Part shown: in pieces, positions 48,001 through 51,000 of the stretch
How positions within the stretch are numbered: position 1 is the stretch's first letter
Layout of the letters: each line of letters begins with the position of its first letter
NCBI GenBank assembly: GCA_964362365.1
Contig: CAYIEF010000002.1
Span: 908-64,907 of the forward strand
Source: an uncultured Methanosarcinales archaeon
GTDB taxonomy: Archaea; Nanobdellota; Nanobdellia; Woesearchaeales; GW2011-AR9
Direction of reading: 5' to 3'
Length of the DNA: 64,000 bases
Program-made: the position numbers

Positions 48001-51000
48001 GAAAGAAACTCACAATTGGGGTATAGAAGTAGTCAGGACTGAGCTTAAGGAGATAGATCCGCCGAAAGATGTTCAGGATACCATGAACAAAGTTGTAAAA
48101 GCAGAAAACGAAAAGATTGCTGCCAAGGACTTTGCCACGGCAAAAGAAACTGAAGCTGACGGAGTTAGGAGAGCAAAGATCAAAGAAGCGGAAGGAACCA
48201 GGCAGGCTAAAATATTAGAAGCGCAGGGGCAGGCAGAAGCAATCAAACTAGTGAACGAATCTGCTGACAAGCACTTTGTGGGAAACGCTCAATTATTGAA
48301 AAAACTTGAGACGGTGGAAAACTCATTGCAACGAAATGCAAAAGTAGTCATCCCTTCTAACACGGAATTGGTGAATGTTATAGGAGAATTGGCCGGAGTA
48401 GCTCCAGTTCCAATAAAAAAGAAATAAATCATTTCTTTCCTGGGTCTGATACCACGCTGCTCGCAGCGGCATCGAATTGCAAATCGATGGCCAGGAAAGA
48501 TTAAAAATACCCCGCAGCTTGCTGTGGTTGGGATTTTTATTTCCCGCTCAACTTCTCAATCACATCAACCACTCGCTGATGAGCTTTTCCATCCACGATA
48601 TAACACCAATCTTTTACCAGCTTCTCCCGTTTCTCTTGTAACAAAGAAGGGTTTTCTAACAGCTCCTGCACTTTTTCTTGTATCTTGTCGTTATATTTAA
48701 TCCTATAGGAAGGGTCGTAGTCTTGGTAGAAATTTTGAGTTAAGTTAGGAAGGTCAATAGTTAGGCAGGGCTTGTCTAGTATGGATGCTTCTAAAACCGT
48801 GCTGGTTCCGTAAAAATTTATTAAAAGATCGCATTGGGATAGTAAAGTATACAGATTTTCATTTCCTTTGAGATGGTTAGTAGACACTTTTTCATCAACT
48901 AAGGCGTCGTATTCCTGATGATGAAGTTCTCTAGGATGAGTTTTGATAGTAATATGCACCTCCGGGATATTTTGCAGGACAGCAATGATCTGCTTAAAAC
49001 AGTCGAAATAGATCTCTTTGGGAATTAAATTTACTTCAATCAAAGTTTGGGTGGTGATAAGAATCTCTTTGATCTTCTGTTGAGGCTTTTTTCTTTTATA
49101 CTTAGAAATATCGTTGTATATGATTGGTCCAGTGATATGGGCCTGTTCCTTGGCAATGCCCCAATTCATAAATTGTTTTTGATTATGTTTTCCAAACACT
49201 GCATAATGAGCGCTCCCGGCATTGTTGATAGGTTGATCGGTAATTCCATGCTGAATTACCAGAGCAGAGATATTGTTGTTTTTTGCCGCGGCAATTAAGC
49301 ATTTCTCCACGCTGCTCCCGGGAGAGGTAAGCACGCCGCAGGTAATCTTTTCCTCGCGGATGATCTTATCAAATAGATAATAATGAAACGCAAGTTGAAA
49401 AAGCATCTCTCGTGAAAAATGAAAATGAAACAGATATTTACAATAAGGCCAGAAACTTTTCTCCCCCAGCGAGAAAATTCTTTCCTTTTGCTCTTCAGAT
49501 AAACTTTGTATTTTCTGATACAGTTCTTTTGCTTTCGCTTTCGCTTTCCGGATAATTTCTGTATCACTGTACTGGTAGATGCTGTTTTTATCTTTTAACA
49601 GCTGGAGTCTTTTACTGGAAAAAGGATTGATCACCACCGGAAAAGGAACTAAGTTATTTCTTTTGGCGAGTTCATCAATTATTTCTTGAAGACGGTAGAT
49701 TTTTCCATCTTTTTCCAGCTGATTGGTATAGGTAAGAAAGAGCGCCTTTTGCTGCGATGAAGAAGCTTTATGAGCTTGAGATTTAGCAACAGTTCTTTTT
49801 CGTTTCTCATTTAAAGAGATCAGCTTGGGAAGCAATAGACTAAAGAGGCCAAATTCTATTTTTTTTGTAGCGGTAAGTTTTTCTTTTCGTTTAAGAAGAT
49901 CGTACATATTAAGCTGCTTGGGCATCATTACCAGGAAGAACATGCGCTCATAGAACCAGCCTAACGGAAGCCCTTCAAACTCGAACAGGTCGGCAAAGCT
50001 CTTTCCATCCAAGACCTTGCGCTGGTACCAGTTCAGGGCTATCTCTTCCATCTCGCCGTAAATGGGGGCATAGGTAGAGTTTAAGATGGCCATGGCATTG
50101 TCTTTGATGTTTCCTTTATATTGTTTATTGAACTAAGATATTTTGTGTTGGTACAAATGCCGTACAAAACTTAAGAATGCACAAATAATTTATATAGAAG
50201 TAAAGATTAATTATCATCATGGTAAAAAGGAAAATTACATCAAAGCAACTGACTGTAAGACAGATCGCCAGGATAGCTGTGCCTATCCTAAAAAGGAATG
50301 GGGTTACAAAAGCAGGAATTTTTGGATCATACTCTCGAGGTGAGGCAAAGAAAAGGAGTGATGTGGATATTCTTGTAAAAACAAAGAAAGGAATTAGTTT
50401 ATTTGATTTTGCTGGTATTAAAATTGAACTTGAAGAAAAGCTTCATAAGAAAGTTGATTTAGTAGAATACAATATGATAAAACCTCTAATTAAAGAATCA
50501 ATTCTTGAAAGCGAGGTAAGAATCATATAAAGAGAACAATTGTCCTTTATCTTAAAGATATTCTAGAAATGATAGAATTGATTGAAAAGTCAACAAAAGG
50601 TCTTTCAAAATCAAAGTTTAGTAATAATAGGGATATTATTGATGCAACAACCAGACGACTAGAAATAATAGGAGAAGCAGCAAAACATATCCCCTCTCAA
50701 ATAAGAAAAAAAGCATGATTCAGTCGCATGGAATAAGATTGCAGGAACAAGAGATATTCTAATCCACGCATATTTCCAAGTTGACATTGATAAAGTTTGG
50801 GAAGTCATTCAACATGAGCTTACGCCTTTAAAAGAGGAAGTTCAAAAAATATTAGATGAATCGCTAGGCGAAAACTAGCTGGTTCTGCACGCGCGGAGAT
50901 AACGGGCTCTCACTATTTTTTTTCCAGATACTATTCTTTCTGTCTACGATCCCCAATCGCCTAACACAACCTGTATTCAAGTTCGATAATGCTTATAAAT

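Follow-up and report, generated by a model that had tools for sequence, protein, structure and literature searches.

A class I HepT/MntA cassette with a twice-lesioned toxin gene, probably a recent pseudogene, in a groundwater DPANN archaeon

Class I HepT/MntA toxin–antitoxin (TA) systems are defined by a PF01934 protein with an RX4HXY motif that is encoded beside a PF01909 protein with a GSX10DXD motif (Yao et al., 2020; PMC7641770). A cassette of this kind lies in the stretch of DNA analyzed here, 64,000 nucleotides (nt) of contig CAYIEF010000002.1 from GenBank assembly GCA_964362365.1 (hereafter the window), whose host is a member of the Nanoarchaeota and thus a DPANN archaeon. All of the features that define class I are present, namely PF01934, RX4HXY, PF01909, and GSX10DXD. 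An intact, translatable toxin open reading frame (ORF) is absent: the toxin gene, hepT, carries an ATA in place of its start codon and a +1 frameshift in a run of seven A (Table 1). Because the toxin ORF is broken twice, the two genes do not form a working TA pair, and the cassette is a decayed member of class I HepT/MntA.

The antitoxin gene, mntA, is intact, as the initial annotation had reported. Its product matches PF01909 (NTP_transf_2; E-value 4e-15), PF18765 (Polbeta; 2.7e-15), and PDB entry 1wot (9e-13). The NCBIfam model MntA_antitoxin matches at 1.5e-13, under the model cutoff; NCBIfam equivalog scores are below cutoff, at 44 and 50 bits versus 60. The catalytic motif had been read as GSx9DxD, a spacing that the translation corrects to GSX10DXD. 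In PADLOC, no model matched HepT, and the MNT protein matched candidate PDC-S09 models only. Searched with a local HepT hidden Markov model (HMM), the window yielded no second HepT on which the orphan MntA could act.

Directly downstream of mntA and on the same strand, the reading frame of hepT changes at a run of exactly seven A. The frame on the N-terminal side is open from 50509 onward until its TGA stop, and the +1 frame spans 50705, following a TAA at 50702-50704, to a TAG at 50876-50878; the two share just 11 nt, surrounding the A run. Each piece is recognizable on its own, both by PF01934 (3.9e-9 over profile positions 5-50 for the N-terminal piece; 4.8e-15 over positions 74-120 for the C-terminal piece) and by the local HepT HMM (1.2e-26 and 4.7e-24, respectively). 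With one A deleted, the repaired protein matches PF01934 at 3.1e-28 (98 bits; cutoff 23.5). DNA alignments with the closest intact pair (L087; HepT 67-70% amino acid identity) and with an intact allele at the syntenic position in a sister lineage (L175 and L176) place a 1-nt gap exactly in the A run. The split in the toxin gene of this MNT-HEPN pair, as originally proposed, is thus borne out by frame analysis, domain matches, and comparison with relatives. The A-rich codons at the run encode a conserved R-K-K motif, and runs of A6 or longer occur at the intact R-K-K-(Y/H) codons of homologues in 13 of 164 related loci; with A6-A7 frequent at this position, a replication slip from A6 to A7 would be natural here.

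The two pieces differ in what could be made from them. The N-terminal piece retains a single conventional ORF, which is annotated as a gene in two of the six assemblies described below. In the frame of the C-terminal piece, no ATG, GTG, or TTG yielding at least 20 amino acids (aa) was found, and no ORF is listed; lacking a start codon, the catalytic half is therefore not translatable alone.

To place the ends of the ancestral gene, we turn to the homologues. The repaired HepT was searched against 5.8 billion proteins, a collection that includes the six assemblies. This search returned 512 matches, of which those listed are nearly all 111-118 aa long, the top one being 70% identical and coming from a Nanoarchaeia metagenome-assembled genome. 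Against 19 homologues of 112-117 aa, the repaired HepT of 116 codons aligns without internal gaps and keeps all 22 invariant columns of the 20-sequence alignment, including W68, R75, D76, H80, and Y82. In all 19 homologues, Met occupies the column at which the window has ATA; they begin M-K/T-R, where the window reads ATA AAG AGA (50527-50535). The ancestral hepT therefore comprised 116 codons from 50527. The initial annotation had anticipated that removal of one A would restore a typical HEPN protein of about 100 aa starting at the ATG at 50569, with RDILIH as its catalytic motif. The HEPN identity is secure, and comparison with homologous HEPN genes, which had been recommended, leaves no doubt about the homology of the reconstituted protein (3.1e-28; 512 matches). 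The motif also stands, R75 and H80 being invariant across the alignment; the length and start do not, as the gene begins 14 codons earlier.

The altered start becomes clear from the junction of the two genes. An MNT ORF with a GSXnDXD motif lies directly upstream of HepT in nearly all of 78 related genome loci, and in 39 of these the HepT start and the MNT stop overlap as NTGA. The junction reads ATATGA in L087 and in L175/L176. In the window it reads ATATAA, a degenerate overlap without a start codon. A single G to A change at 50529 thus accounts both for the loss of the HepT ATG and for the conversion of the MNT stop from TGA to TAA. Judged by these sequence comparisons, the start-codon change is a second, independent lesion of hepT, one that the initial annotation had overlooked.

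Table 1. Coordinates of the MNT-HepT cassette and its features in the window.
Feature	Position	Strand	Remarks
MNT-HepT cassette, ~833 nt	50138..50970	+	Present versus an empty site in L178-L180
TATA-box-like element (archaeal) TTTATATA	50189..50196	+	~30 nt before the MntA ATG; read from sequence
mntA, MNT antitoxin/adenylyltransferase, intact	50219..50530	+	103 aa; TAA stop 50528-50530
GSX10DXD catalytic motif GSYSRGEAKKRSDVD	50324..50368	+	G36 S37 ... D48 V49 D50 in translation
Lesion 1, ATA in place of the HepT start	50527..50529	+	Overlaps the MntA stop; ATATAA, not ATATGA
HepT N-terminal piece	50527..50718	+	Residues 1-62, then Ala and a TGA stop at 50716-50718
Sole conventional ORF of the N-terminal piece	50569..50718	+	49 aa from internal Met15; first 14 residues lost
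Lesion 2, A7 run	50706..50712	+	One extra A relative to in-frame AGA AAA AAG CAT (RKKH)
HepT C-terminal piece	50711..50878	+	+1 frame; residues 62-116 plus TAG; no start codon of its own
RX4HXY motif RDILIHAY	50750..50773	+	R75/H80 predicted RNase catalytic residues; Tyr82 would-be target of AMPylation by MntA

An AlphaFold2 model of the repaired HepT (mean predicted local distance difference test score 85; predicted template modeling score 0.80) consists of helices at residues 5-23, 28-32, 35-53, 57-62, 68-78, and 87-114. The N-terminal piece corresponds to the first four of these, and the break after residue 62 would part them from the helix predicted to carry RX4HXY. Among experimental structures, the top Foldseek matches of the model are 5yep, 6m6u, and 7bxo (Shewanella oneidensis HepT) and 7ae6-9, with a probability of 1.00 and template modeling (TM) scores of 0.63-0.68. 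A PDB search with the repaired HepT as a single sequence gave no match; the profile search succeeded, the family profile matching S. oneidensis HepT (5yep_B) at 7.8e-9 in two blocks. The frameshift sits in a variable connector, at the place where S. oneidensis HepT has an insertion of about 29 residues.

In its layout, the window cassette resembles the characterized class I type VII pairs of S. oneidensis (SO_3166/SO_3165) and Thermococcus cleftensis (CL1_0071/CL1_0070), in which the MNT gene likewise precedes the HEPN gene on the same strand (Yao et al., 2020; PMC7641770). Tyr82 of the window protein even bears the same number as the AMPylated Tyr of T. cleftensis HepT. The window form is short (116 aa) and lacks the insertion of about 29 residues found in S. 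oneidensis HepT; moreover, unlike in those two pairs, its toxin is broken and its host is a DPANN archaeon. The HEPN/MNT system of Aphanizomenon flos-aquae (7ae6, 7ae8, and 7ae9) shares the HEPN toxin fold (TM 0.62-0.68 to the model), although identity to its HEPN protein is only about 19% and the window toxin, unlike it, is genetically inactivated. The A. flos-aquae HEPN toxin is neutralized by MNT-catalyzed AMPylation, according to the titles of the PDB entries.

Could the lesions be products of sequencing or assembly? The exact MNT protein is found on seven contigs, of which six were retrieved, each from a separately sequenced and assembled library. All six libraries derive from one groundwater well, Hainich H51 (0.1 and 0.2 µm filter fractions, replicates R1-R3; assemblies ERZ1292623, ERZ1292627, ERZ1292634, ERZ1292639, ERZ1292641, and ERZ1292643), with coverage of 3-11x. 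Both A7 and ATATAA are present in all six retrieved contigs, as in the window contig (7/7 at the assembly level), and both lesions are fixed in the sampled population. The contigs are not copies of one sequence: single-nucleotide polymorphisms (SNPs) cluster in the flanking genes of three of them (L002, L004, and L006), and a T run at 50914 has a different length in L006, showing that the assemblers resolved a difference in homopolymer length. Within the window, which has a coding density of 93%, 84 of the 91 A/T runs of at least 7 nt lie inside intact long ORFs, and homopolymers are thus not systematically in error. Among the 5.8 billion proteins, these assemblies included, none exceeds 70% identity to the repaired HepT. 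Nor did scans of genome and metagenome contigs return a near-identical intact copy of the allele; among the matches listed, there were only relatives of 36-54% identity, and the source genome was itself absent from them. A sequencing or assembly error at A7, one of the three explanations raised initially, is thus very unlikely.

Two of these contigs show further differences at or near the cassette. L003 carries SNPs at 50589 and 50593, in the N-terminal piece, both of them nonsynonymous (K21N and T23A, counting the 116 residues from 50527). In L004, a 3x assembly, the 518-aa gene upstream of the cassette looks split at about position 600 of the contig (window ~49303); this stems from a scaffolding gap (an N run) and a divergent haplotype, and is not a real disruption.

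The history of the site is recorded in its relatives, where it occurs in other states. In L178-L180, which represent a further relative from other samples and whose flanks are about 91% identical to those of the window, the genes for the 520-aa protein and the 2-hydroxyacid dehydrogenase lie 94 nt apart; the empty site, L178:4269-4364, corresponds to window 50094-51021. Homology to the window ends at 50093/50137 and restarts at 50971, which indicates an insertion of about 833 nt (50138-50970) in the window. The G+C content of the cassette is about 0.30, versus 0.40-0.46 in the flanks, and this trough coincides with the insertion. By eye, no convincing target-site duplication was seen at the cassette borders.

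An occupied site with an intact toxin is found in a sister Nanoarchaeota lineage (L175:4085-5000 and L176:1226-2159, reverse strand), which comes from H51 samples shared with L006 and L001. Its flanks are about 91-92% identical to those of the window, and the gene order is the same: a 519-aa gene, MNT (103 aa), HepT, dehydrogenase, and methyltransferase. The HepT of this allele is intact, with 118 aa and an ATGA overlap. The ends of the two cassettes (50138 to ~50316 and ~50855 to 50970) are 94-98% identical, whereas their cores are only about 50-70% identical, with 69% aa identity for MNT and 52% for HepT. Conversely, the core of the window cassette is 68-86% identical at the nt level to the cassette of L087, which sits at other sites, and the ends match that cassette at just 42-58%. 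With a core like that of L087 and ends like those of L175/L176, the cassette core appears to have been replaced by recombination in one lineage, and it looks as though two cassette alleles arose in one community through core replacement. The variable glycan-cluster region has a further small indel, as the Band 7/SPFH gene at 47534-48427 and its spacer (47449-48533) are missing in the sister lineages L175-L178, in which 47448 joins 48534 directly. A segment of about 5.4 kb that contains the pyruvate kinase gene (53406-58827) is also replaced in L175 and L178.

Across the family, the frameshift stands alone. In the 164 related loci surveyed, a set biased toward high-scoring copies, no frame change was observed in HepT (0/164), and a change of frame is thus not a feature of the family. 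Premature stops do occur, in 6 of the 164, and 4 of these 6 retain an intact GSX10DXD MNT gene upstream. As read from these loci, toxin-first decay is a recurrent event in the HepT family. Orphan antitoxins are also abundant in other taxa, with anti-addiction as a possible role (Horesh et al., 2020; PMC7192599). The window resembles the orphan antitoxins of Klebsiella pneumoniae described in that survey in that an antitoxin is kept beside a disrupted toxin; the survey concerned bacterial type II and type IV systems, whereas the window holds an archaeal type VII enzyme antitoxin in which both toxin lesions appear recent.

The positions of the premature stops are also of note. Four independent ones fall in the short HepT connector (TAG57, TAG57, TAG58, and TAA62, among L020, L079, L082, and L099), with MNT intact upstream in all four; they precede the catalytic helix, at the place of the window frameshift (residue 62/63). 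L079 has an extra stop at residue 22, and the two other relatives stop at W68 and W91. The clustering at residues 57-62 could be due to chance or to codon composition.

Taken together, the data are best accounted for by a class I HepT/MntA (type VII) cassette in a Nanoarchaeota genome, in which hepT is probably a recent pseudogene. Toxin inactivation leaving an orphan antitoxin, one of the options originally listed, is the best supported explanation, with two independent lesions, both found in all six assemblies, and no intact copy of the allele among the 5.8 billion proteins. The decay seems to be recent: apart from M1, the window carries no substitution in invariant or near-invariant HepT columns, and the divergence of HepT relative to MNT, measured against L087 (67% versus 83% aa identity), resembles that of other pairs.

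A plausible course of events can be proposed. The ancestral mntA and hepT would have been co-transcribed, probably from the TATA box 30 nt upstream and on a leaderless mRNA, with hepT translated by coupling at the ATGA start/stop overlap. By homology, HepT would have acted as an RNase of the HEPN type through its RX4H active site, with MntA keeping it inactive by AMPylating the Tyr of RX4HXY. The G to A change at 50529 would have converted the HepT start from ATG to ATA, with a harmless change of the mntA stop from TGA to TAA, and replication slippage would have added one A to an A6 run at 50706-50712. The resulting frameshift would split helices 1-4 from the catalytic RX4HXY helix, left with no start. 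Either lesion would lower or prevent expression of the catalytic half, and HepT function would presumably have been lost. Loss of the toxin first would be the safe order of decay; the orphan antitoxin is intact and possibly still expressed.

Several observations weigh against this interpretation. The gene is pristine save for its two lesions, which fits very recent decay and equally a gene under selection. Low-frequency bypass can occur where a frameshift lies in a homonucleotide run of 3-8 nt, above all when the run falls between conserved motifs (Rockah-Shmuel et al., 2013; PMC3812077). All of the assemblies represent one aquifer population, and they are independent with regard to sequencing but not as evolutionary replicates. 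A further objection comes from L006, an A7 contig. Its C-terminal piece carries four SNPs (50767, 50818, 50836, and 50863), all third-position and synonymous in the HepT frame, a pattern with P ~0.002-0.005 under neutrality. If this contig is neither a chimera nor a recombinant, then the downstream frame was still under selection once the frameshift had arisen. The SNPs lie in the terminal 160 nt of the contig, which has 5x coverage and also enters a variant tract at its other end; the first of them is 55 nt from the A run. The simplest explanation, though unproven, is that this end is recombinant or chimeric and stems from a lineage with an intact gene. The 3' spacer of L006 shows four differences, the T-run length change among them.

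Among the competing readings, leaky slippage fares best, and even so it is improbable. Here, a net +1 slip of RNA polymerase or the ribosome on A7, combined with initiation at the AUA (by termination-reinitiation) or at Met15, would yield trace HepT under MntA control. This proposal draws on the overlap of the two frames, 11 nt centered on the homopolymer, on the retention of all catalytic and invariant residues, and on the synonymous SNPs of L006 (4/4). Furthermore, bypass has been documented for indels in 3-8 nt repeats between conserved motifs (PMC3812077), and the window lesion resembles slippage-rescued frameshifts, as its +1 indel falls in an A run inside a variable connector that separates conserved motifs (Baranov et al., 2005; PMC1088944; Rockah-Shmuel et al., 2013). 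However, the frameshift is missing in L087, in the syntenic allele, and in the 164 relatives; in most bacterial genomes, selection against slippage shows itself once runs reach about 9 nt, longer than the 7 nt here (PMC1088944). Utilized slippage typically involves runs of about nine or more (Baranov et al., 2005); the run here is A7, the indel is unconserved, and the start codon is lost. The next 0-frame codon after Lys is GCA, neither rare nor a stop, and the stop follows one codon later; there is no obvious stimulator, though a stimulatory structure was not searched for. The SNPs of L006, in turn, are explicable by a recombinant or chimeric end of a 5x contig. With the start codon also gone, two inefficiencies would multiply. 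Initiation at AUA reaches about 1% or less of that at AUG in Escherichia coli, and we know of no archaeal data on AUA initiation. Slippage-dependent expression, the remaining option of the initial annotation, is thus left without comparative support and survives as a small residual chance.

Marginally less probable is a broader scenario in which the locus has been re-tuned: two very divergent alleles with shared cassette ends coexist at one site, and the intact MntA and/or the N-terminal fragment of the toxin-off allele would be kept as immunity against HepT toxins of mobile elements, perhaps with trace full-length HepT made by slippage on A7. If this were true, the independent truncations clustered at 57-63 in other lineages and the synonymous-only variation downstream would reflect selection and not chance.

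The fragment may also be considered by itself. It would comprise 49-63 aa in three or four helices without an active site, and could act as a dominant negative or join the orphan MntA in an anti-addiction module against incoming HepT. We regard such retention as still more doubtful. The stops of relatives cluster at residues 57, 57, 58, and 62, close to the window frameshift at 62/63, but this clustering comprises five events and was noticed post hoc, and the connector is rich in Glu, Lys, and Tyr codons that are one step from stops. An anti-addiction role has been proposed for orphan antitoxins (PMC7192599), and the community also harbors an intact allele that is divergent; against this, the normal start codon is lost and L003 has two nonsynonymous SNPs within the fragment.

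Phase variation, with the A run serving as a reversible ON/OFF switch of the toxin (A6 to A7 and back) by replication slippage, has a slim chance. Homopolymeric tracts in coding genes are reported to be able to serve as switches (PMC2831843), and A6-A7 is common at the equivalent position in homologues. The tract is nevertheless uniform in length in seven contigs from six libraries at the assembly level, A7 is short for an efficient switch, reversion to A6 would leave the start codon lost, and the A-rich codons are simply those of the conserved R-K-K. Least probable of all is an artefact that hides A6 and an intact hepT in the actual genome: homopolymers are classic sites of indel errors and single-contig coverage was low (3-11x), but A7 recurs in 7/7 contigs of several distinct haplotypes, the ATA lesion is a substitution, unlike a homopolymer error, A/T runs of at least 7 nt are in frame in 84 of 91 cases, the T run at 50914 was resolved in L006, and no assembly has a called intact copy.

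Loss of hepT alone, as in the recent pseudogenization favored here, is of little import, being an ordinary decay route in a very common TA family. The locus nonetheless offers a clean, datable case of toxin decay in a natural aquifer population of a DPANN archaeon. One chromosomal site occurs in three states (empty, with an intact cassette, and with a divergent cassette whose toxin is twice lesioned), which amounts to a natural experiment, if a small one, on how TA/defense cassettes turn over in ultra-small archaea; of greater interest, as a by-product, is the polymorphism of cassette alleles within a DPANN population. There is also a lesson for annotation, in that the start-codon lesion shows only when the start/stop overlap is compared with that of homologues.

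Turning to expression signals, the TATA-like element 30 nt before mntA suggests that its transcript is leaderless. Many first-in-operon genes of the window are preceded by a TATA-like hexamer at -24 to -37, for example 20895-22340 (-), 26480, 28015, 29517, 37513-38358 (-), 47534, 54715, and 61923-62591 (-). This arrangement suggests that the mRNAs of the window are mostly leaderless, as expected of an archaeon. A scan for sigma-70 promoters and intrinsic terminators gave counts equal to the shuffle expectation; being inapplicable to an archaeon, it was disregarded.

Beyond the cassette, no tRNA or Rfam match was found in the window, which encodes a glycan-biosynthesis cluster with a NeuB/PseF fusion, a WbuZ/HisH-like protein, an asparagine synthase, a flippase-associated protein, and a pyruvate kinase. 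Two genes of this cluster are apparent fusions: 38594-40081 joins a HisF/WbuZ-like to a HisH-like part (495 aa), and 43549-45363 joins a PseF/NeuA-like cytidylyltransferase to a NeuB synthase (604 aa). The pyruvate kinase (54715-56424) has an N-terminal extension of about 90 aa, and several close homologues match the winged-helix family HTH_24 (PF13412); its nearest named relatives are from Woesearchaeota and Nanoarchaeota (DPANN). For two proteins encoded nearby, cluster mates at 90% identity bear the NCBI name Nanoarchaeota archaeon, and it is on these matches that the DPANN assignment of the host is based. Synteny around the pyruvate kinase relatives is not conserved and is uninformative on the TA site. 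Two intergenic gaps contain small ORFs. At 35672-35932 (+), an 86-aa ORF in a 542-nt gap is YD/RHS-repeat-like (YEYDTNDNLVLITDSQG) and is possibly a gene remnant; at 17404-18090 (+), hydrophobic ORFs of 56, 67, and 83 aa fill a 777-nt gap before the NodU-like carbamoyltransferase gene at 18100-19860.

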